Shown one piece after another: positions 1-15,021 of a DNA stretch of 15,021 bases. The stretch spans positions 1-15,021 of the forward strand of contig NW_021825593.1 in NCBI RefSeq assembly GCF_006345805.1, in the 5' to 3' direction. A program made the position numbers and the translations under genes. How positions within the stretch are numbered: position 1 is the stretch's first letter; every line of letters begins with the position of its first letter. This DNA comes from Octopus sinensis. Lineage: Eukaryota. The notes beneath the pieces were generated by a model. That model was not told the DNA's origin. It did not search any database and saw nothing but the letters and a program-made list of their open reading frames with translations.

Positions 1-111
1 CCATCCATCCATACATACATACATACATACATACACGTATACATACACAGACACATACATACATAGAAAAACAGGGAGATAGATAGAACGATAGATAGAA
101 CGATAGCTAGT

Positions 112-174
<63 letters not shown>

Positions 175-334
175 AGTGAGAGAGAGAGATAGATAGATAG
201 ATAGAGAGAGAGAGGGAGAGAGAGAGAGAGAGATAGGGAGATAGAGAGATATAGATAGAAAGAGAGAGAGAGACAGGCAGGCAGACAGACAGGTTGACAT
301 GGGCAGATAAATAGATAGATAGGTAGAAAGGTAA

Positions 335-385
<51 letters not shown>

Positions 386-390
386 TATAG

Positions 391-429
<39 letters not shown>

Positions 430-460
430 TAGAGAGAGATTGACGGACAGACAGATAGAC
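1..460. repeat. Compound microsatellite (CATA)n/(GATA)n/(GA)n/(GACA)n
   Basis: Tandem tetra- and dinucleotide runs read directly from the sequence. Confidence 0.95.
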
Positions 461-744
461 ATATCTTTGTAACAGCTAAAAATACGTCCGTTTGGCTGAT
501 TTTCTCAGTTTCTCACACCCGGATGCGATCACGTATCCTATAAAATTCATTGTGCGTATATACATATAAGGGTCACACACACTAAGGGCCACGTGTACAG
601 CATGTATATTGCCACGTATACATCATATTTACAGCCACGTAACCATAATTAAATCCATATAAACTTTATATGACTAGGGTCAGCTGAAAAGTTCATATGT
701 TCATCAGGACACTCTTATGGATTGTGATCAAATGAGATTTGGTT

Positions 745-2118
745 ATCAACATAGACCCTTTGCGTTCTACATACTTCTTCCCTCGATGTTGCAGCGATTC
801 GAACCTATTGGTAACGATGCTTTCTTCCGGATGGTAGATCGAAGCCATCAACAACAACAGATATGACGCCATTATCACTACGGTACTGTTTCCCAGCCAA
901 ATCTCTGTTCAGATTGGGGAAAAGATGATAGTTAAATGGGGGCCAAACCAGGAGAAAAGGGATGCTGTTCAGCCGGTTCAAAGTCACAGCCACACACAGC
1001 AGCCATTAAACTTGTAAGTAGGAGTATTATCCTGATGAAACAGGATACTTTACTTGAGTTTTCCTGGGCGTTCCTAGCCTTTCGTAACTATCTTAATGAG
1101 TAGCCATAGTACTCTCCATTGATGGTGTGGCTCTCTTCAAGATAGTCTATAAATACACTGCCTTATTCATCTCCCTAAATTGAGGCCATCATCTTCCCTA
1201 CAGTTGAAAAGCCCTTGGTGTTGTTTCTACTGCATGGATTGTCTTTTTGTCTCTGGCTCAAAGTACTGAAACCAACACTCATCCTGAGTTAAGAAATGTT
1301 CAAGGAAACCAGCTGGGTCTGCCTTAGAGTCAGATTTTGCCGTAGTGTGATCAACCTGGTACTCTTTTGATCAGGAGTTAGAAGACGTAATACACACCGA
1401 GTAGAAACCTTCGTCATAAGGCGGTGAGCTGGCAGAAACGTTAGGGCGAAATGCTTAGCGGTATTTCGTCTGCCGCTACGTTCTGAGTTCAAATTCAGCC
1501 GAGGTCGACTTTGCCTTTCATCCTTTCGGGGTCGATTAAATAAGTACCAGTTACGCACTGGGGTCGATATCATCGACTTAATCCGTTTGTCTGTCCTTGT
1601 TTGTCTCTTCTGTGTTTAGCCCCTTGTGGGTAGTAAAGAAATAGGTATTTCATCTGCGCTACGTACTGAGTTAAAATTCCGCCGAGGTCGACTTTGCCTT
1701 TCATCCTTTCGGAGTCGATAAATTAAGTACCAATTATGCACTGGGGTCGATATAATCGACTTAATCCGTTTGTCTGTCCTTGTTTGTCTCCTCTGTGTTT
1801 AGTCCTTTGTGGGTAGTAAAGAAATAGGTATTTCATCTGCGCTACGTTCTGAGATCAAATTCCGCCGAGGTCGACTTTGCCTTTCATCCTTTCGGGGTCG
1901 ATTAAATAAGTACCAGTTACGTACTAGGGTCGATATAATCGACTTAATCCGTTTGTTTGTCCTTGTTTGTCTCCTCTGCGTGTAGCACCTTGTGCGCAAT
2001 AAAGAAATAAGAAACCTTCGTTATGTCAAGTTCATTGAGTGTTATATTCTCAACTCCATCACGAGGTATGCTAATATCATTGACTATTTCATTTACTGTC
2101 ATTCACCTGTCATCCACC
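745..2118 (-). pseudogene. Mariner transposase pseudogene (multiple stops and frameshifts, SINE-interrupted)
   Basis: Pieces appear in the ORF-track entries 693..878, 805..993 and the C-terminal half of 1289..1573; motifs as listed for the element. Confidence 0.85.
1418..2009 (+). mobile_element. tRNA-derived SINE family A, head-to-tail trimer (one full unit plus two units lacking the first ~40 nt)
   Basis: Head GGCGGTGAGCTGGCAGAAACG (A-box-like), B box GAGTTCAAATTC at 1485-1496. Units restart at GGTATTT (1460, 1644, 1827; period 184/183). 15-bp TSD AGAAACCTTCGT(C/T)AT at 1403-1417 and 2010-2024. Confidence 0.92.
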
Positions 2119-3958
<1,840 letters not shown>

Positions 3959-4061
3959 TATTTACTAGTATTCATTTTGAATATTTATTCATATATCCGT
4001 GTGAATATGTGTGCGTGAGCATGTTATGCGTAGGTATAAATAAATATGCATATGTATTTGC

Positions 4062-4343
4062 GTGTGTCTTTGTGTCTGTGTTTGTCACACACACAAACAT
4101 ACACACACACAGAGCTTTAGACAACCGTTGTTGGTTCATTTACGTCCCTGCAAAGTAGTTGTTCGGCAATGGAGACCGATAGAACTATATAGAATAAGCA
4201 GAAGAATTTAACAAAAAAAAAAAAAACTAAAAAGAAAAAAAAAAGAAACAAAACCAAGGTTTGATGTGTTCAACTGAACCCTTCAAAGTAGTGCTCCATC
4301 TTGGCCGCAATCCAGGTACGGAAACTAGAATAAGACAATAAAA
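4062..4343 (+). mobile_element. Old, diverged 3' portion of SINE family C
   Basis: GACAACCG..TTTACGTCCC..GTTCGGCAA..GAGACCGATAGAA..GTGCTCCATCTTGGCCGCA..GAAAC matches the reverse complement of the copies at 12527-12717 and 14867-15021. It carries an internal A-rich expansion at ~4210-4250. Confidence 0.75.
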
Positions 4344-4740
4344 TGTAAGACATGACACTAACCAGGATTGATGTGTAGGCGACATGGCAAGAAAATAATA
4401 ATGAAATGCCCAAAGCGTTTCTCAATGTCGTCTTTGTCACAAATTCTTTCTTTGAAACTTCAGGAATTGGTTCTTTTCTATGATTTACCATTAAATTTGA
4501 GACCGATTTTCTTCAAACTTTCAATCATTGGTCGTCATTATGTTTTATTGTCAGTCAATTCTGAACTATTGAAATGAAGTATAATAAACAGACAGAGAGA
4601 CATCTAGTAGAAAGACAAGTTTATTTAGCTAGTTATTTGCGCACACTGTCAAATCATGTATAGATGTATGTGTGAGTGTGTTTGTGTGCGTGCGTATGTG
4701 AGTGTGCGTCTGTGTATTTACATACACGTGTGTATGGATA

Positions 4741-4764
4741 TGTATCTCTATCTGTCTGTCTGTG

Positions 4765-4819
<55 letters not shown>

Positions 4820-4886
4820 ATGTCTGTCTGTCTGTCTGTCTGTTGTCTGTCTGTCTGTCTGTCTATCTATCTACCTATCTATTTTC

Positions 4887-4956
<70 letters not shown>
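4741..4956. repeat. (TCTA)n/(TCTG)n microsatellite, preceded by a (TG)-rich tract from ~4665
   Basis: Direct reading. Confidence 0.95.
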
Positions 4957-4957
<1 letters not shown>

Positions 4958-5585
4958 GCTGTCACGTGTGGGACGAATCCGCCTATCGGCCGAGTCTATC
5001 GTGAGAATTGCTCCGCACCCTTCCCTCAACCGGGAAGGCAAGGCAGTTTTCATCGTACTGGTGGCCATGGTGAAAGAATGTGTGTGGTGGACTCGAGCGA
5101 AAGGATTAGAGACAAACACTTACCTCTCTGGCCAATCGCTCATCAACTTTTCAAGTACCACTTGAAAAGGAAGGTGAGAATGGAGAGGGAAGTTTTGTCT
5201 CGCGAAAGATTCAAAAAAAGATGGGTGAATGTTGCAAAGATGGTGCGTGCTAGTAACGAAACCATTTTGAGCATGATCCTGTAGATCGTAAAAAAGAAAG
5301 AAAGAGAGCATTTTTGACCTCATGTGTTTATTTCCTCCCTGACTGGGGTTCCCGTGGTCTTTTCTGTACGCTTTTCTTCCCACGGATGAACCCAATCTTG
5401 TTATATCAATGTTTACACCATTATTTCTGTGATACACGATTTTCTTTTTTTTCCTTTTTTCCTCCTCTCGATCCCTTTTGATCGCAATCTTACATTTTTT
5501 ATTTTTTTCCACCCTCGAAAAGAAAAGCTCTGCATTTGTATTTGTCCCCTCTGTATTCAGCCCTGTGTGGCTAATAAAAGAAAGT
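4957..5585 (+). mobile_element. 5'-truncated Tx1/L1-clade LINE: ORF2 C-terminus plus 3'UTR
   Basis: [33 protein letters not shown].. then a frameshift at the T-run ~5147-5151 to [31 protein letters not shown] (stop 5282-5284). This resembles the K..IW..R / F...W C-terminal signature of Tx1-type ORF2. A T-rich UTR follows, with AATAAA at 5573-5578 and then (TCTA)n. Confidence 0.75.
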
Positions 5586-5622
5586 TATCTATCTGTCAAT
5601 CTATCTATCTACCTATCTATCT
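5586..5622. repeat. Short imperfect (TCTA)n tract between the two LINE pieces
   Basis: TATCTATCTGTCAATCTATCTATCTACCTATCTATCT. Confidence 0.9.
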
Positions 5623-6493
5623 CACCCCCACCCCCCAAACTCAAACACCACACCCCAACTGTCACCAAACAGCACCAACACCACCAACAACAAAAGTCAG
5701 CACACTCAGAAATAGATCCCAATACCCTTTCCCTCCCTCCCACCCTCTGATTCCTCCGACATGTCGTCAGATGAAGACGACACAGAGGATTGGCAAGTGG
5801 CCACAAGGACAAGGTAAAAAAAAAGGTAGTGTTGGTGGTGGTGGTGGTAAGGGGGAGAATAGAGAAGCAAACAAACAAAGCAGGGAGGTTTACTACTCCC
5901 GAAACTAAAAGACCCGCAGAAAAACAAAAGCATCAACACAAACACGCCAACATCAAACCCCCACAACAAAGCTGACAGCTACAAACACCAACAATCCAGA
6001 CCTAATGGAATACCTATTTCTATTTCTTTATTACCCACAAGGGGCTAAACACAGAGGGGACAAACAAGGACAGACATAGGTATTAAGTCGATTACACCGA
6101 CCCTAGTGCGTAACTGGTACTTAATTTATCGACCCCGAAAGGATGAAAGGCAAAGTCGACCTCGGCAGAATTTGAACTCACAACGTAACGCAGACGAAAT
6201 ACGGCTACGCATTTCGCCCGGCGTGCTAACGTTTCTGCCAGCTCGCCGCCTTTTGGAATACCTAATGGAATACCTTAGGTCAAACAGCAACATAACAAAA
6301 AAATGGTATCAAAACAAAGAATCACCCACGCACAACACCACCACAACACTTTAAAATCATACACAGCACACTGATATCTCTCTACCCGGATGCAGTAGGG
6401 AGATTCCAAAAATACCTCTCTAAAAAACTATACAAAAACTTTCTGGAAGAAGACTGTGGGGTGAAGGACAAAGAACTTTCGGACTGTAAGTAA
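5623..6493 (+). pseudogene. Putative LINE ORF1 C-terminal remnant (frameshifted, SINE-interrupted)
   Basis: Low-complexity P/T/Q stretch, then SDSSDMSSDEDDTEDWQVATRTR (5746-5814). The frame KLTATNTNNPDLMEYL|RSNSNITK is continuous once the SINE and one TSD are removed. It ends ..PQHFKIIHSTLISLYPDAVGRFQKYLSKKLYKNFLEEDCGVKDKELSDCK* just before ORF2. The assignment is positional; no domain was recognised. Confidence 0.55.
6016..6252 (-). mobile_element. Full-length SINE family A monomer
   Basis: The reverse complement starts GGCGGCGAGCTGGCAGAAACGTTAGCACGCCGG, has B box GAGTTCAAATTC and ends AATAAAGAAATAGAAAT. 16-bp TSD ACCTAATGGAATACCT at 6000-6015 and 6260-6275. Confidence 0.93.
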
Positions 6494-6566
6494 CTCTCTC
6501 TCTCTCTCTCTCTCTCTTTCACTCTCGTTTCCCTTTCGTGTGTAAAACACAACCTTTGACAGGAAC

Positions 6567-7667
6567 ATGCTCAAAATAGACAGTATAAATGTACGTGGTT
6601 TGCGGTCGCCTTGGAAACAAGGCTACCTGTCAAACGACATCGAGTCACAAAATCTACATATCATAACCATCAGTGAGACCAGACTCCACGGCCCGCGGGC
6701 CCTCCAGCACATGTTCGGACATTTCGACATTTAGTTTTCTCCGTGTCTGCCGAGAATGGGCGGAGGAGTTACTTCGGTGCTTCTTCAGAAGAGGCTGGGC
6801 CTCGATGTAAGATCGATTTTCCTTGACTCGAAGGGTAGGTAGTTCGTCTTGGATGTCGATGGCAGCAATAAGTGTACTTTTCCACTGATAACAGTTTATG
6901 CACCATCCTTAAAAGGCCGGCCAGATTTCTTTCGACGTCTAGAGGTTTTCCTGGGAACGTGTCGACCTTTACTTTTAGTGGGGGATTGGAATGCTACCCT
7001 AGACATGCATCTAGACTACGTGGGAAGAGACAATAATAGGAGGGGATGTAAATGCCTGAAGGACCTGCTCAGACGTTTCCAACTGTCTGATAGGTATCTA
7101 CTGGACCACCCGAATGTGCCAATGTGGACATGGACCAACCGCATCGGGTCGTCCAGATCGTATTTAGATAGAGTATTTTGTAGGACAGTGGATAATGATA
7201 GTCTAGTTTGTCCACATTTCCACACAGTTAGCTACACAGACCACAAATTTGTGACTTGTACACTTGACTTAGACAAGAGACATAGGCAGGATCCCGGTTA
7301 CTGGAAACTGAACGCGTCGTTCACGGAACGCCAGGCTTACAGGGACAGGATTAGCACATTAGTTAAGAGAACACTGACGGGTGCCATCGTCAACAACAGA
7401 TGGTGGTATGCCCTAAAGATATCAATTAAAGCAGAATCGGTTAGGTACAGTAAGACCCTAGCATTAGACCGAAACAGAATAGAGGGAGACCTAGTTAAGA
7501 AATTAGAAGAGGCACTTAGAACTGACATCGCGTCCAACGTACTGGCGGCAAAGTTAGCCCTCGACTAACACTTCAGCGCCAAACACGAAGGATGCATTAT
7601 CAGAGCTAGGATTCTTGCTCTGAGGAACGAAGGAGTTGGAGTCGCCCGAGAGGCGGAGGCGCAATAA
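6567..7667 (+). pseudogene. LINE ORF2 N-terminal apurinic/apyrimidinic-type (APE/EEP) endonuclease, Tx1-like
   Basis: Single frame from ATG 6567 with in-frame stops at 6732, 6840 and 7566. Motifs SINVRGL, ISETR, VYAP, GDWN, SYLDRVF, TDH, then the Tx1/L1-typical PGYWKLN and GCIIRAR. Confidence 0.92.
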
Positions 7668-8004
7668 AAATCTATAAACAAGTAACTTTTTATGCATCAT
7701 ATATCATTTGGAAAAGCATGAAGATCACCACGACTCACTTCCCCGTTCATTAAATCGTTATATATACAGGTGTTTCGGACCAAACAACGACATTGCTGCA
7801 ACGTACAGGCTTAACTTGAAAGCCTTTAAACAAAGGCAAAATACGTTGTATAATACACACAAGGGCAGGTAATCGTTGAAACAAACAAGTTAACAGGGTG
7901 GTCAACAGCTGCAATGAATGTGATCTGAATTTACTGAATCAGAGCTGAATCAGGGCTGAATTTACTGAATCAGACCTGACAAAGGGTTAAAAAAGAAGAA
8001 CTAC

Positions 8005-8049
8005 GACAACAACAACAACAACAACAGCAGCAGCAGCAGCAGCTGCAGT
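8005..8049. repeat. (CAA)n(CAG)n trinucleotide repeat
   Basis: Direct reading. Confidence 0.9.
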
Positions 8050-8262
8050 AGTGGCTGGGCTTTTGTGCACGAGAAATAAAGAGACCTGTACCATCTCTGT
8101 ATTGTAACAGTACAAGCCAATCTAATATGTATGAATTCAATAATAAAATATTCTCAACATATGACAAATATATTGTTACCGATGACATTTCCAGTTGGGG
8201 TATAAACAAAGGAGTGATTCAGGTTTTTATTTTGTTTACCTGGATAGAAAAAGAGAGTGGAA

Positions 8263-8458
8263 TGGTGGTGGTGGTGGTGGTGCCGGTGGTGGTGGTGGTG
8301 GTGATAAGGGTTTGATAATATATCACTTCTACGTGGGTAGAATATTTGAGCGATACCGTTGTCGTAATCTTTAAATGACGACGATGAAGATAAGGATGAT
8401 GATGATGACGACAACGACAACGATGACGATGACGACAATGATGATATTGATGATGATG
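8263..8458. repeat. (GGT)n at ~8263-8303 and (GAT/GAC)n at ~8376-8458
   Basis: Direct reading. Confidence 0.9.
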
Positions 8459-8571
8459 TATTTTTAATTTCGCGTATGCGCATTGTTTGTTTTTGATGTT
8501 GTCGACTACACAGTAAGTGCAAGATGTCTGGTACTATCTTGTTTGGCACCGGCTGTGAGAAAAACAGCACC

Positions 8572-9354
8572 ATGACGCAATTCACTCCGCCAGAAATTTG
8601 GGAACTATATGCTGTACTGCTTGGCATTAGCGCCGGAAGCTCCAATACAAACGTTTCAGAGGGTTTGAGTGTCAATCTGAGGACAGCGCACGTACAGAAA
8701 GTGATAAATATCAAACATCCAGTCAACATCATGGTGTTTGGAGTGATCGGCCTACATCAAGTACCTGGAGGAAGTAGTGATGCCCTGGGTCAAGAGGGTG
8801 GCTGCTGGAAGACCTTATGTTTTGCAACAGGAGTCTGCACCATACCTATTTCTTTATTGCCCACAAGGGGCTAAACATAGAGGAGACAAACATGGACAGA
8901 CATAGGTATTAAGTCGATTATATCGACCCCAGTGCTTAACTGGTACTTAATTTATCGACCCCGAAAGGATGAAAGGCAAAGTCGACCTCGGCGGAATTTG
9001 AACTCACAACGTAACGGCAGCCGAAATACCGCTAAACATTTCGCCCGACGTGCTAACGATTCTGCTAGCTCACACAAACAGAACACGGTCATGGCTGTGA
9101 GACAATTTCTATGACCACACCACTCCTAAAATGTGGCCACCTTACTCCCCAATCTGTGACCCCTAGATTATTATGTGTGAAGCGCAGTTGAGCGAGCGAC
9201 CACCAAAACTCCTTGTAACATAAAAAATGAACTGAAGACAAGTATTATGGCAGCATTCACCAACTTAAACAAGGAGACCGTCCAGAAGAGTTGCAGGAGA
9301 TTCCGAAGATGTCTGGAGACTGTGGTTAGAGCCAATGGCGATTTTATTGAATAA
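8572..9354 (+). pseudogene. maT/DD37D-like transposase pseudogene
   Basis: MTQFTPPEIW..VNLRTA (HTH start) / deletion / KHPVNIMVFGVI / deletion / AYIKYLEEVVMPWVKRVAAGRPYVLQQESAP [SINE] HTNRTRSWL*DNFYDHTTPKMWPPYSPICDP-DYYV*SAVE..SCRRFRRCLETVVRANGDFIE*. Spacing between the second (D to E) and third catalytic positions is about 36-37 residues. Confidence 0.85.
8844..9071 (-). mobile_element. SINE family A monomer, slightly 5'-truncated, no TSD
   Basis: The reverse complement runs GAGCTAGCAGAATCGTTAGCACGTCGGGCG..GAGTTCAAATTCC..GGGCAATAAAGAAATAGGT. It sits between the SAP and HT codons of the transposase. Confidence 0.92.
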
Positions 9355-9469
9355 ATTTACTCTTTAGTATTTCAAGATATTGTTATGTAATTTTGGTAAA
9401 GATATCTGTTAAAATGAAGTTTTAACAGATATTTTTGCGTAACTTAGACGACAATATATTCATTGCACG

Positions 9470-9716
9470 GTGTGTGTGTGTGTGTGTGTGGTTGTGTGTT
9501 TGTCTGCGCCCGTGTGTATATATATACACATCTATACATACATATAATAGTATGCTGGTGAGCATATATATACATATCCGTTTAGCTAGCTTCCCTCTCT
9601 CCTCACTTCTCCCTCTCTCTCTCTCTCTCTCTTTAAATATATATATATATATATATATATACATGGAAATGTACATTCCTACATGCATATAAACACGCAC
9701 ACATACACATACACAC
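9470..9716. repeat. Mixed (TG)n, (CT)n, (TA)n, (CA)n microsatellites
   Basis: Direct reading. Confidence 0.85.
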
Positions 9717-9849
9717 TTGCGTATATGATGATTACTTTATCTTGTCAGATGGAAGCCATCTCACGTTCAACCTGATTGTTTACTTTCATCCTTTCATGTG
9801 TAAAGATATCCACCGCCATAGGACTTTATAAAATACAAAATGGATCAAC

Positions 9850-9992
9850 AAATGAAATTATAGTGAGACATCTGTGCTTCATGTCACTACATTTAAGTAA
9901 CAAAAACTTGTACAACCTATTTGACACTCTTTTAATCGCCATGGTACGTTCGAGTGACAATAATTTCAAGATGTCTGGTACTACCTTGACTG
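9850..9992 (+). mobile_element. Probable 5' non-coding fragment of a second copy of the maT-like transposon
   Basis: CAAGATGTCTGGTACTA(C/T)CTTG at 9967-9988 matches 8520-8541 (21/22), which lies just upstream of the transposase ATG. The left boundary is uncertain. Confidence 0.5.
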
Positions 9993-10086
9993 CAAGTTTT
10001 ATGTCAGAGTATCTTTATCCTAGAAGAACTGCCCTCCCCACGGCTTTGTCAAAATTATCAGGAGCCTCCTCTACCCGTGGGGAATC

Positions 10087-10248
10087 TATTTAACCCATAG
10101 ATGGGGTCCCCGCGGATACTACCGTTCCGAGTCAAAACGAACCTGGGAATAATGGAAATTAAGGAATGACTCCACGCTCCCCACAACTCCAGAACTCCCA
10201 AACTGGAGCTACAACACTGAATGCCGTTTAATGTCGTAGTCATGATAT
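10087..10248. mobile_element. Diverged interspersed repeat (retroposon-like), family unassigned
   Basis: ACCCATAGATGGG..TACTACC..ACCTGGGAATAATGG..ACTCCAC..CTCCAGAACT..GGAGC resembles an abundant octopus repeat as recalled from memory. There is no second copy in the window to confirm it. Confidence 0.4.
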
Positions 10249-10694
10249 TACATATAAGACAGCAGGCAGGCGAAGCAATGTTATGGAACAAATAAACGTT
10301 TGGATCAGTTCAGATATGATTGTGACATATTTCATGGGTAAAAAGAGTATTTTGAAGACAGTTTGCTGTAGAAAAACTTCTCTCGTTAGGAAACAGGTAT
10401 TTAAACACTAAGAGACATTTCAGAGTGACCCTTGTGAGACAACGATTTAATTTCAAGCTCCTTTACTATCGCCAGAACCGAATACCAAACGGGACAAATT
10501 TGACTACAGAGTCCACTTTGAAATTGCTGTTGGAATTTTAAGGTCAGTTGCCTGAAGCAAAAATTTTCCCCATGACAAACCACAATGAAAAGGGCATTTT
10601 ATGGATCAAATGAAGTTTCGCACTTCAGTCTTTTCTACTATATCTATGTATGATTTTATACCTATTTCTATCACTATCTTTTCGTCAGTGGAAA

Positions 10695-11107
10695 AAGCTA
10701 GAATAGCGTTGACCCTTAAGGGTTAGCTACATTTAGGTGGCGATTATACTTCACGATGTTGTGTTGCTACTGTTTATATCTCGCCCAGAGATTTATTATT
10801 ACTTGTTTCCACTTTTTCGAGATGAGTGACTTTTCGGCACTGGAAAAAGTATATATTTGCATTGAGAATCACTTCCCATCGACAACAGGTGGTTGTCACA
10901 CACTGGTGATGGGCCAGTCCCCAGAAACTCGAGTCCATGTGTATCACGTCAGGCTGGAGATAGGAAGGATGATTTCCCTTTGCAAATACTGAAAGGGCAC
11001 AGATAGTGTGTCAATAGCCAGATGGAGGAGAAGTCTTCCTGGGGCTACAAGCTACAGTAGCATCGAACCTTAAGGGTTAGTCACAGTTAGGTAGCAAATA
11101 TACTTCA

Positions 11108-11111
<4 letters not shown>
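10695..11111 (+). repeat. 63-bp imperfect direct repeats (10695-10757, 11049-11111) bounding a 354-bp unit; possible Penelope pLTR or retrozyme-like remnant
   Basis: Ungapped alignment 52/63 with core CCTTAAGGGTTAG..TTAGGT..TATACTTCACGAT. A hammerhead-like motif lies inside at 10898-10942. Confidence 0.7.

Positions 11112-11158
<47 letters not shown>
11110..11158. repeat. (TA)n microsatellite
   Basis: Direct reading. Confidence 0.95.
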
Positions 11159-11954
11159 GAATTAAAGAACACAAATGAGGAGCTTAAAATTTACGACACC
11201 TGTTTCGGTAGAACGTTATTGGCTAAAATTTTATCTGAAGATGATTGATTATATGCTATGATATAATCTAGGTAGTGGGTAGCGATTTTCTTCACTACTT
11301 CAGGGAGTGACGACCCTGCTTGACACGAGTCCCGGGCTCAGCTGGCTCCGGATGACAGTACCCGGTATGGGTCCCTATCCAGAGTTACAGAAAGAGACAA
11401 CCTTCAAAGAAATACGGAGAGGCGGTTTAGTGTTCGACTCGACACTCTTCCGGCAGCTCCTGCAACCAAGCTGGTGACAAATGTAATGCTCTGCAATCCT
11501 TTGAACTACGTCAGCAAGGTCGAGAGAGGAATCCTGACGATTGGGCTACCCAGGATTTTCTTACATCTAGCCCAGTCCTGCGCAAAACTAGAGAGGAAAT
11601 TGGAGGGGACATGAAATGTAAAAACCTGACTGGATTAGTTTATGCGCAACTCCATTGTCTCCCCAGACAAAAGGATGCCAACAACAATATATGAATACAA
11701 TAATAAAGTTTTGCCAAAACATATAAATTTGAAACCCCACTTATGTTCTCTTTGTACCTACGCCGCACCTGCAACCAGCCCTGACTCGAATCTACGGTTT
11801 AAATTTGATTTGGTACTTACATATCTACTGTATCCTCCCAATACCTGATATATTCATAGTTGTTTTACTTCATGTGAACTTTATGTTATAGTACCTAGCT
11901 ATTTCTGGCGTCCTGCGTGATGATATGCCTAGATTCTATGGAATCCTATAACTT

Positions 11955-12188
<234 letters not shown>

Positions 12189-12516
12189 AAAGGAGCACTC
12201 CCTCGGTTCCGACGCGGAGGGTCCCAGCTGATACGCTCAGCGGAACAGTTTGCTCGTGAAATTTACGTTCAAGTGACTTAGCATTCCACAGACACGTGTA
12301 CCCTTAACGTAGTTCTCAGGGTGATTCAGGGTGATACACAGTGTGACAAGGCTGGCCCTTTGAAATACAGGCACTACTCATTTTTGCCAGCTGAGTAGAC
12401 TGGAGCAACGTGAAATAAAGTGTTTTGCTCAGGGACACAACGCATCGTCGGGAATTGAACTCATGACCTTACGATTGTGAGCCGAATGCCCTAACCACTA
12501 AGCCACGAGCCCTCAC
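12189..12516 (-). mobile_element. tRNA-derived SINE family B, near full length
   Basis: Reverse complement: GTGAGGGCTCGTGGCTTAGTGGTTAGGG (A box TGGCTTAGTGG), B box GAGTTCAATTCC, then TGTGTCCCTGAGCAAAACACTT..CAGCTGGCAAAAATGAGT (CORE/V-domain-like segment), about 330 nt in total. Confidence 0.85.
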
Positions 12517-12526
12517 ATATAATATA

Positions 12527-12771
12527 TTACTCTCTTTTACTTTTACTGGTTTCAGTCATTTGACTGCGGCCATTCTGGAGCACCACCTTTAGTCGAGAAA
12601 ATCGACCCCAGGACTTATTCTTTGTAAGCCTAGTACTTATTCTATCGTACTCTTTTGCTGAACCGCTATGTTACGGGGACGTAAACACACCAGCATCGGT
12701 TGTCAAGAGATGTTGGGATGGGGTCATGTGGTTGGCAAGCAAGCTATTTACCACACAGCCACTCCTGCGCC
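12527..12771 (-). mobile_element. SINE family C with internal deletion (tRNA head fused to 3' body)
   Basis: Head GGCGCAGGAGTGGCTGTGTGGTAA (A box) at ~12725-12771 joins directly to a body at 12527-12717 that is nearly identical to 14867-15021. No B box is present. Tail is (GTAAAAGA)-like. Confidence 0.85.
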
Positions 12772-12888
12772 TATGGATGTAATAGGTAAGATGTCAAAAT
12801 ATTGCGTATAAAATATACCCACACATACATCTATATATACACGGGTGTGTGTCTGTATGTATGCGTGTATGTATGTACATGATATATA

Positions 12889-12950
12889 TTCTTTATTTAT
12901 TTCTTTATCTAGTTTCAGCACACGAGCTGTGGCCATGCTGGGGCACCGCC
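12889..12950 (-). mobile_element. Isolated retroposon 3' tail related to the SINE C tail
   Basis: Reverse complement GGCGGTGCCCCAGCATGGCCACAGCTCGTGTGCTGAAACTAGATAAAGAA versus SINE C GGCGGTGCTCCAGCATGGCCGCAGTCAAATGACTGAAACAAGTAAAAGA. Confidence 0.75.
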
Positions 12951-12976
12951 ATATATATATATAATATATATATATT

Positions 12977-13008
<32 letters not shown>

Positions 13009-13280
13009 ACATATATATATATACATATTTATACATACAATACATACATATATATATATATATACATATATATACATACATATATATACATATATATATA
13101 CTATATACATACATATATATATACATATATATACATATATATATAATTATATATAATATATATATATACTATATATACATATACATATATATATACATAC
13201 TCATATATATATATACATATATATACATATACATATATATATACATACTCATATATACCGACACACACGCACACACACAA
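12951..13280. repeat. Degenerate (TA)n/(TACA)n tract ending in (CA)n
   Basis: Direct reading. Confidence 0.95.
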
Positions 13281-13555
13281 ATGTTCGTTCATATACACAC
13301 TCGTATCTCTTTACACTTGTATCTATATCTATCCACACACAAACTAACCACAAACCAACACAAATCTGTAGAGCGCGGCCATTCGAAAAAGAGGCCACGT
13401 GACTGCCGTCTTTTTGATTTATAACTTCCGTTATGATGCTTCTTAAGTCTTACAGAAGACTTCCATTGATTAGCAGACGATCGTGTTTCTACAACATTTT
13501 CATTACAGTTCAATTTCCTCATAATCTATTTTCTCATCATGTGATATTCAACCGA

Positions 13556-13823
13556 TGTTGTTATTGTCATTGTTGCCTCTCTTTCTCTCTTTCTGTCGTT
13601 TTTGTTGTTGTTGTTTGACATTGTCTTCTTCTCTGACTTGTCTTGTCCTCCATTTGTGCTGTTTGTTTTTCTGTTTACTTTTTGGTTGTTTTTGGTTGTT
13701 CTCGTGGCTTATTATATATCTTGTTTCTGTGGCTGTTGTTGTGGTTGTTGGTGTTCTTGTTCTTGGTGTTGTTGTCGTCGTAGTCGTCGTTGGTAGTGTC
13801 GTCGCTGTCATTATAGTCGTTGA

Positions 13824-13903
<80 letters not shown>

Positions 13904-14241
13904 CACTACTACTACAACAACAACTACTACTACTACTACGACCACTACCATCACCGCCGCCGCCGCCACCACCATCGCCACCACCACCACCACTACCACC
14001 ACCTCTACTACTACTACTACAACTGCTACTACCACCACCACCACTACTACTACTACTAAGATGACGACGACGACGACGATGGCGACTATCACCTCTACCA
14101 CCAACATCACGACTATTACTAAAACGACTACCACCATCACCACCACCAAGAACAACAACAACAACAACAGCAACGACAACAAAACCACCACCACCGCTAC
14201 TACAATCCCCACCACTACCATCGCCACCAGTATCACCATCA
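13556..14241. repeat. Compound trinucleotide low-complexity region: (GTT)/(GTC), then (CTA)n, (CCA), (CCG), (GAC), (CAA)
   Basis: Direct reading. It explains the overlapping poly-S/L/V/Y/T ORFs on both strands. Confidence 0.92.
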
Positions 14242-14866
14242 GGTGAACCGACATTGTGCGCTGTGTTTTTCCTAAGGCTTAGGGGCGAAACGCTTCTGAC
14301 CCTAAGATACTTGCTGATGATATGAAAGAGTTTCCTGCATTGCAATGAATTTAGAAGAGCTTGCAAAACCCTTGAATAGCCCCTGAAGTTTCTGCATGTA
14401 GTAAAACATCTCTGATGTTTATTTAAACTGGCTTGAAATTTGTAGGTTATCTGGCTACTATTTCTAGCAAGTTACACGAACACGTCAAAGGTTCCTCATT
14501 GAAATCCTCATTGTAAATTCGTTTGTTGATCTTATCTTGATTTCTTCCCGTTGTTGTTCATTAATGATCGCAGTCACTATTGATTTCTCTCGTAGTGATA
14601 GGAAAAGATGCAAGCAAGTTTGGAGCGTGAGAGACGCGGGATCACTGCCTTCTCATCACGTGCAAGTACGACTGTGCTCAAAATTTCCTCTGCCTTGTGA
14701 TGTATGATTAATTGACATGGAGCTGAAAAGTGTCTCAATTGCCCTTGGATTCTGGAAACTGCTGTTACATGACCACGCTGAGGCGGGACAACCGTTGGAG
14801 ACATCACTCTCCTTTTACAAAACAGGGGCCTATAAGACCTACTTCGGAACTCAGCATCAAGAGGTG

Positions 14867-15021
14867 TACTCTTTTACTCTTTTACTTGTTTCAGTCATTT
14901 GACTGCGGCCATGCTGGAGCACCGCCTTTAGTCGAGCAAATCGACCCCGGGACTTATTCTTTGTAAGCCCAGTACTTATTCTATCGGTCTCTTTTGCCGA
15001 ACCGCTAAGTGACGGGGACGT
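14867..15021 (-). mobile_element. SINE family C 3' part (runs off the window end)
   Basis: Near-identical to 12527-12682, with a (TACTCTTT)n tail on the + strand. Confidence 0.9.

Follow-up and report, generated by a model that had tools for sequence, protein, structure and literature searches.

An abundant octopus SINE shares its 3' tail with L1/Tx1-like LINEs, two lineages of which insert within its head

Introduction

When a long interspersed element (LINE) and a short interspersed element (SINE) end in almost the same letters, has the SINE taken its tail from a LINE, and is the LINE at hand the one that copies it? The question is raised by a 15,021-nt stretch of the Octopus sinensis genome (assembly GCF_006345805.1, contig NW_021825593.1, positions 1 to 15,021 of the forward strand; hereafter the window), which holds a truncated L1/Tx1-like LINE, here called family A, and several units of a SINE that we call SINE A. 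A first-pass annotation of the window had noted the resemblance and proposed that the window LINE mobilizes the SINE. We find homology of the SINE tail to the 3' ends of L1/Tx1-like LINEs to be supported, whereas the role assigned to the window LINE was not supported. Instead, we consider it probable (roughly 0.7) that SINE A took its tail from an element of a related clade, represented by family D, and that it is copied by D-type proteins which also use the SINE as their target.

Results

The SINE tail matches the 3' ends of L1/Tx1-like LINEs

The family A copy (4957..5585, plus strand) is 5'-truncated and consists of the end of open reading frame 2 (ORF2), which carries one frameshift and stops at 5282-5284, followed by the 3' untranslated region (UTR). 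One solo copy of SINE A (6020..6252, minus strand; 233 nt) is full-length, an A/B-box head and a central body being followed by an apparently LINE-derived tail. The terminal segment of the LINE (5541..5583, plus strand) and the SINE tail (6023..6064, minus strand, read as its reverse complement) agree in 37/43 alignment columns, as annotated earlier, with five mismatches and one gap. The alignment scores 54, whereas 2,000 dinucleotide-shuffled versions of the LINE stretch averaged 19.3 and never exceeded 34; the same LINE end also aligns to the remaining four SINE units in the window with scores of 30-46. Both ends fold into the small hairpins originally described for them, that of family A (5559..5572, plus strand) having an AGCC/GGCT stem and a 6-nt loop directly before AATAAA (5573-5578) and that of the SINE having the form GCCC-N5-GGGY, although the single folds are weak (z-scores: LINE, -2.15; two SINE copies, -1.21 and -1.19).

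The concern that the segment might be absent from other LINE copies, and thus be an old SINE fragment inserted into the window copy, proved unfounded. This reading is rejected because the segment is common to the LINE copies, standing at the 3' end of 30/30 and being unchanged letter for letter in 27/30 (the best 30 of 40 scored copies were fetched, out of 4,763 candidates). The closeness of the two ends within the window is nevertheless coincidental, because the SINE sits antisense within a second, older and broken fragment of a related LINE (5626..7654, plus strand; Pfam Exo_endo_phos), which comprises an ORF1 end and the endonuclease part of ORF2 with 71% and 83% identity to family A. Taken together, the comparison supports homology of the SINE tail to the 3' ends of the L1/Tx1-like group.

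Family A is confined to (TATC)n arrays

Full-length family A measures ~6.2 kb and encodes an ORF1 product of 715 aa and an ORF2 product of 1145 aa (both read from a natural copy, L035). The latter contains an apurinic endonuclease (APE) domain (PF03372), a reverse transcriptase (RT) domain (PF00078) and a zf-RVT domain (PF13966), while a zinc knuckle in ORF1 stays below the Pfam cut-off (E 0.0027). The best match to ORF2 among solved structures is human LINE-1 ORF2p (E 5e-61, with R2 at 3e-20), in a coarse comparison that had L1 and R2 as the only retrotransposons among its matches. Among named homologues of ORF2 the nearest, at 65%, belongs to Argonauta hians, an NCBIfam scan gave only a weak RT match below the cut-off, and no named Tx1 reference was returned by homologue searches, cluster look-up or the Atlas. 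Family A is a microsatellite-targeting element of apparent Tx1 type, its clade label being best given as Tx1-like.

The window copy is 98-99% identical to the other 39 of the 40 scored copies. TATC repeats, without poly(A), follow directly after the 3' end in 30/30 copies, and truncated 5' ends are flanked by (TATC)n in 8/8 cases among L001-L030, three other breaks being internal deletions. In the window the copy lies between two such arrays on the plus strand, its target at the 5' flank (4892..4956) and the 3' flank (5586..5622). Families A and B, ~80-84% identical, occur nested in the same arrays (L032, L037, L040, L041).

Could the tail nevertheless be recognized, and the SINE mobilized, by family A or by families B and G, which are closely related to it? 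The proposal draws on the similarity of the two ends, on the abundance and youth of family A, and on the presence of array sequence at both sides of several of the 10 SINE copies inspected in (TATC)n. Target counts, however, largely refute it. Genome-wide (2.72 Gb, as for all such counts below) there are at least 88,778 SINE A tails, and only 123 of these run into TATC repeats, with 109 meeting the opposite-strand repeat, compared with ~209 expected at TATC from a background of 0.24% in 20 arbitrarily placed 10-kb stretches, so that SINE A and family A have no target signature in common. Their hairpins differ as well, in stem letters and in loop length (5 nt in SINE A), and the family A form AGCC-N6-GGCY occurs in 1/304 SINE tails; a family A upstream motif joined to the SINE tail was found in no element genome-wide (0 matches). 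Since the SINE is not enriched in (TATC)n, and since in hairpin and insertion sites it agrees with another clade, as described below, we regard family A as a very improbable mobilizer. A search for a family A subfamily with the exact SINE tail gave no match and then a single one (L073), which is itself a SINE copy.

A radiation of related LINEs shares the tail layout

A genome search with distant homologues revealed many related families, often with an intact ORF2 and each with its own target, including (TATC)n, (ATT)n, the head of another SINE, a tandem repeat and, for one copy, a U2 gene; several of them thereby show the target-specific insertion into multicopy repeats that is a trait of the Tx1 clade. 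In a FastTree phylogeny of 23 family representatives and 10 unnamed outside homologues, families D, F and I group together and are separated from the (TATC)n families (support 100, of the SH-like kind only; broken copies cover 42-100% of the columns, and the representative labelled 'C' carries a B tail).

A stem of at least 4 bp stands just before an AATAAA-like signal in 21/23 representatives, which are not independent of one another. Its letters vary between families (AGCC/GGCT, GCCC/GGGY, GATC/GATC, GATT/AATC, TGCC/GGCA), and, as judged from these letters family by family rather than by a covariation statistic, the stem-loop is conserved with compensatory changes. The layout spans families whose C-terminal ORF2 is only ~45% identical to that of family A. 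The form seen in the SINE, GCCC-N5-GGGY, is present in all 11 D/F/I representatives. One old D copy reaches a mean identity of 85% to 152 SINE tails and two other old D copies reach 81-82%, the SINE tails being 89% identical to each other.

These observations also bear on the direction of the exchange. That the LINEs acquired the end of the SINE, or that T/G-rich tails preceding AATAAA came to be alike by chance, would fit with the shortness of the shared stretch, with the weakness of the single hairpin folds, with the yield of a 4-bp stem in 8-42% of shuffles, and with the few SINE A bodies that carry D-type tail letters (L166, L310, L321), which show that some exchange occurs and are possibly cases of recent tail exchange. 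Such an explanation must, however, account for the recurrence of one layout with different stem letters across the radiation, and for the fact that the SINE head and body also occur with an unrelated tail in a sister element, SINE A'; we therefore give it hardly any credence.

Several families were observed at targets of their own. Family E (L090, L104, L105) is inserted in the head of a different SINE in 3/3 cases, and its 3' UTR has a stretch of ~26 nt in common with SINE A immediately before the hairpin, which itself is different. One related copy lies directly before a U2 snRNA gene (L113:4090-4283, Rfam), others (L103, L110, L111, L078) before a repeat whose start resembles U2, and a related family in L082 and L132 is followed by (ATT)n repeats. 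Family F (L289-L297) has many intact copies, often in tandem ~5.2 kb apart, and is found upstream of apparent 5' ends of other LINEs. Copies of an old family whose tail is of the same type (L440, L441, L446, L447) recurrently share one 3' flank, which suggests another specific target.

Families D and J insert inside the SINE

Family D, which was placed by homology and by the tree rather than by a Pfam scan of its own, measures 5.35 kb and has two ORFs, ORF2 encoding 1134 aa. Its exact 34-nt tail occurs 132 times, and the first 30 of these loci comprise 29 D elements and one SINE body carrying the tail of D. Every one of the D elements (29/29) interrupts a SINE head, and by script 27 of these insertions are at an identical base. 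To the 5' side, 20 whole copies (19 of the first 30 loci plus one) all have SINE nt 1-65, and SINE sequence from nt 50 onward follows on the 3' side. Position 50 is polymorphic (C or G), and its letter matches across the two sides in 20/20 copies (12 C, 8 G); the repeated stretches are therefore true duplications of 15-16 bp, a length that agrees with the target-site duplications (TSDs) of the SINE itself. In the window copy of SINE A the duplicated sequence, nt 50-65, corresponds to 6188..6203 (minus strand), which is also the main junction of SINE multimers. It overlaps a long hairpin predicted for the SINE head (nt 33-64; 6189..6220, minus strand), the insertion site being on the 3' side of the loop; the 93-nt head folds with a z-score of -2.73, and the closing pair of the hairpin is T-G in 23/50 heads and G-C in 17/50.

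An intact 1134-aa ORF2 is retained in 4/20 D copies and pairwise identity is ~99%, indicating that D has been active recently, while older D copies are found at the same SINE site. Genome-wide we counted 168 D-type tails, and 150 with the nt-50 junction (the two patterns differ by three 5' letters), a few of these tails standing on SINE bodies. Family D is covered by contigs of four runs, from organisms coded A, B and C, and none of these contigs bridges the SINE-D junction under a 31-letter rule. By eye, 3/20 D copies share a variant on the 5' side that is absent from their own 3' side, which hints, as a lead only, that upstream SINE sequence may travel with D.

A second lineage, J, uses another position. 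Its four closest copies with a tail are all inserted at SINE nt 17 (4/4), whereas the other old relatives inspected are inserted elsewhere. In the window, the SINE from nt 17 corresponds to 6220..6236 (minus strand), a second junction of SINE multimers. SINE A thus shares a target signature with lineages D and J.

SINE A multimers are joined at the same two positions

SINE A is short, non-coding, dispersed and present in high copy number, and has TSDs, as befits a SINE. The TSD lengths of 15-16 bp given in the first-pass annotation were recovered at two elements in the window, namely 16 bp on either side of the solo copy at 6020-6252 (6000..6015 and 6260..6275, plus strand) and 15 bp, with one mismatch, around a trimer (1418..2009, plus strand) that is flanked as a whole (1403-1417, 2010-2024); no TSD was found at a further solo copy (8847..9075, minus strand). 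Among 136 terminal SINE copies, 47 have a TSD of at least 11 bp, and 30/40 registrable ones, from insertions outside SINEs, measure 14-18 bp. Heads contain a B-box-like word in 99/140 cases, and also A-box-like words; ARAGORN and Rfam gave no tRNA match for SINE A, and no other Rfam family was matched by its head. No RNA run on record contained the SINE query. Tail variants track the bases that follow, GTAG preceding AGGTA in 57/77 cases, GTAA preceding AGGTA in 20/25 and GCAA preceding AAGAA in 19/34, which suggests SINE subfamilies with different partners. Octopus SINEs OR1 and OR2 are said to have been described by Ohshima and Okada in 1994, with OK reportedly a further name, and SINE A may be one of these. 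SINE A may resemble CORE-SINEs. A search of supplements for the motifs, with the exception of one file of PMC4824008, gave no match.

In the trimer, units 2 and 3 start at SINE nt 50 (1644, 1827), and this arrangement is common. Of the 88,778 tails, 24,626 (28%) run straight into SINE nt 50, and in a sample of 256 tails we found the nt-50 junction in 89 and an nt-17 junction in 15. Head-to-tail junctions of the SINE are, in other words, located at the two positions at which D and J insert. The sister SINE A', which has the head and body of SINE A and differs in its tail, does not behave in this way: none of 60 A' tails runs into the nt-50 site, compared with 109/301 A tails, and where an A' body starts at nt 46-54 an A- or D-type tail lies upstream in 23/24 cases. 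Junctions of A over A' make up 16/109, and these cannot have arisen by in-place duplication of one copy. Most adjacent units are also as diverged as unlinked copies.

Other repeats in the window

The window further contains a SINE-like element with a tRNA head (12230-12520, minus strand; Rfam tRNA at 12445-12508, 31 bits), a third repeat in two 90%-identical copies (12528-12682 and 14867-15021) without a match to the LINE tail, and an (AAT)n array of ~1.8 kb (2119-3950).

Discussion

The tail, the hairpin and the insertion sites point to the D clade as the source of the SINE A tail and probably of the proteins that copy the SINE. We envisage that the terminal 45-50 nt of a D-clade element passed to an older SINE with A and B boxes, displacing another tail, and that an ORF2 protein would recognize the terminal hairpin in the manner of stringent recognition. 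The endonuclease of this protein would then nick the head of a resident SINE and prime reverse transcription there, and the 5' end of the incoming SINE may be joined by annealing to the homologous target upstream of the nick. As a result the target head would be replaced, leaving one head followed by repeated units from nt 50 to the end. Other members of the clade would probably supply part of the looser insertions outside SINEs.

A number of observations weigh against this account. About two thirds of the SINE tails lie outside SINE sites, where insertion starts are loose (GGTA, TATA, AGAA; classes assigned row by row, excluding L298-L307, which had been chosen for TATC), unlike D, which is almost strictly site-specific. 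D is also rare, with ~170 tails against at least 88,778 of the SINE, and the similar ages of the two, which speak for the account (89% identity among twelve older D copies, 89.6% among SINE copies from different loci), come from a comparison of hand-picked copies. The occurrence of the GCCC-N5-GGGY hairpin in 224/304 SINE copies is partly circular as support, because the pattern used to search for SINE tails includes the hairpin. Raw tail identity favours old D and does not separate young D (77.6% to SINE tails) from family A (78.3%), F and I being at 77-81%, and a tail almost like that of the SINE occurs at varied targets in many additional old families of the clade. In SINE dimers, moreover, the expected target duplication was not detected (first and second units resemble each other at nt 50-64 no more than random pairs do, P 0.17, 46 pairs) and a doubled head was present in 0/33. 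In three cases nt 50 is C in the first unit and G at the junction, and where a first unit stands above A' its letters at nt 62-64 are of A type (6/6 scored cases). It is because neither the duplication nor a doubled head was seen in dimers that the annealing step has to be invoked; either the incoming SINE head replaces that of the target, or dimers move as units. Finally, adjacent units are 92.6% alike compared with 89.6% for unlinked copies (P 2e-4) and reach at least 98% in 5/47, and some arrays must therefore have grown in place or moved as units.

Several of these points are shared by an alternative in which the tail did come from the D/F/I/J clade, while other or extinct members with loose targets made most SINE copies, multimers owe their origin mainly to transcriptional read-through, template jumping or recombination, and the abundant SINE became a target of D and J only later. 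The many old families with nearly the same tail at varied targets, the loose targets of SINE copies at unique sites, the dimers without a detected duplication, the excess similarity of neighbours and the rarity of D all speak for it. It has to account for the base-exact agreement of multimer junctions with LINE insertion sites, twice and independently, at nt 50 and nt 17; it must also explain why A' tails are never upstream of an nt-50 junction, and why most adjacent units have diverged as far as unlinked copies. We consider it unlikely.

If D-type proteins do copy SINE A, its carriers insert inside the SINE, and the parasite would therefore also be the landing site of its carrier. This leads us to propose, at about even odds, a self-feeding loop in which Tx1-like lineages mobilize the SINE through the shared tail, tens of thousands of SINE copies offer specific and harmless landing sites, perhaps with a promoter, and the targeting builds approximately a quarter of SINE tails into arrays. 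Such a system would be the first animal L1/Tx1 pair with a shared tail in the literature searched, and a LINE living inside its own parasite. It would point to what probably drives much of the SINE content of octopus genomes and offer a cause for tandem SINE arrays other than recombination. As shared-tail partners from the L1 group are rare, it also bears on whether a specific RNA tail was already recognized by ancestral L1/Tx1 proteins. One hairpin layout is kept by intact, recently active families that differ in stem letters and in targets, and swapping parts between these close relatives should make it possible to test how a tail is recognized and how a target is chosen.

Comparison with known systems

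The published systems are compared here within the portions of each source that were covered. In that literature, including PMC3531059, PMC5786205 and PMC8967140, we found no octopus SINE-Tx1 pair and no Tx1 family inserting into a SINE, although Repbase, Dfam, SINEBase, the Zenodo library and the octopus papers of 1994 and 1999 lay outside this scope and could already name them. Abundant octopus SINEs with Pol III-type heads have long been known, namely the tRNA-derived OR1 and OR2 (CORE), for which the covered parts of the citing papers give no partner LINE (PMC4824008, PMC4758252); SINE A is similar in abundance and apparent type of head. In O. vulgaris, SINEs make up 11.6% of the genome and 80 L1-Tx1 families have been annotated, the portion covered giving no SINE-LINE pairing (PMC13282606).

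Stringent SINE/LINE pairs have the last 40-50 nt in common and a stem-loop near the end (PMC3472496, PMC3747384), and SINE A and the LINE group described here likewise share sequence at both 3' termini. Three of 58 such pairs have L1-clade tails, the named ones being from maize and Chlamydomonas (Ohshima, 2012, PMC3472496). In contrast to those listed, the donor here would belong to an animal group that is L1/Tx1-like, specific for its targets and devoid of a poly(A) tail, and the word 'octopus' is absent from the main text of a later review (Ohshima, 2013, PMC3747384).

Target-specific families of the Tx1 clade include Tx1 in Tx1D, Keno in U2, Kibi in (TC)n and Koshi in (TTC)n (PMC4494074, PMC3812793). 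The octopus families are alike in being of APE type and specific for multicopy repeats, family A using a microsatellite and one related copy being at U2, while (TATC)n and SINE heads are not among the targets listed in the covered parts of these papers. A precedent for a SINE in this clade is the crocodilian SINEU, assigned to Tx1-Mar through a common insertion site (Kojima, 2015, PMC4494074), and there, too, one target is entered at more than one position, depending on the Tx1 family. In that case, however, the target is a Mariner DNA transposon and the heads derive from U1/U2, whereas here the target is the SINE itself; and no LINE with the same 3' terminus was found for SINEU-1, whereas SINE A has a tail shared with LINEs. 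Tandem SINE arrays have recently been reported from bivalves, which are also molluscan, head-to-tail and accompanied by swapping of tails on a shared body (Martelossi, 2024, PMC11481361). 'Tx1' is absent from the main text of that study, which attributes the arrays, at most ~3% of copies, to recombination between TSDs; in the octopus, by contrast, 28% of tails are joined at one base, and that base is the insertion site of a LINE.
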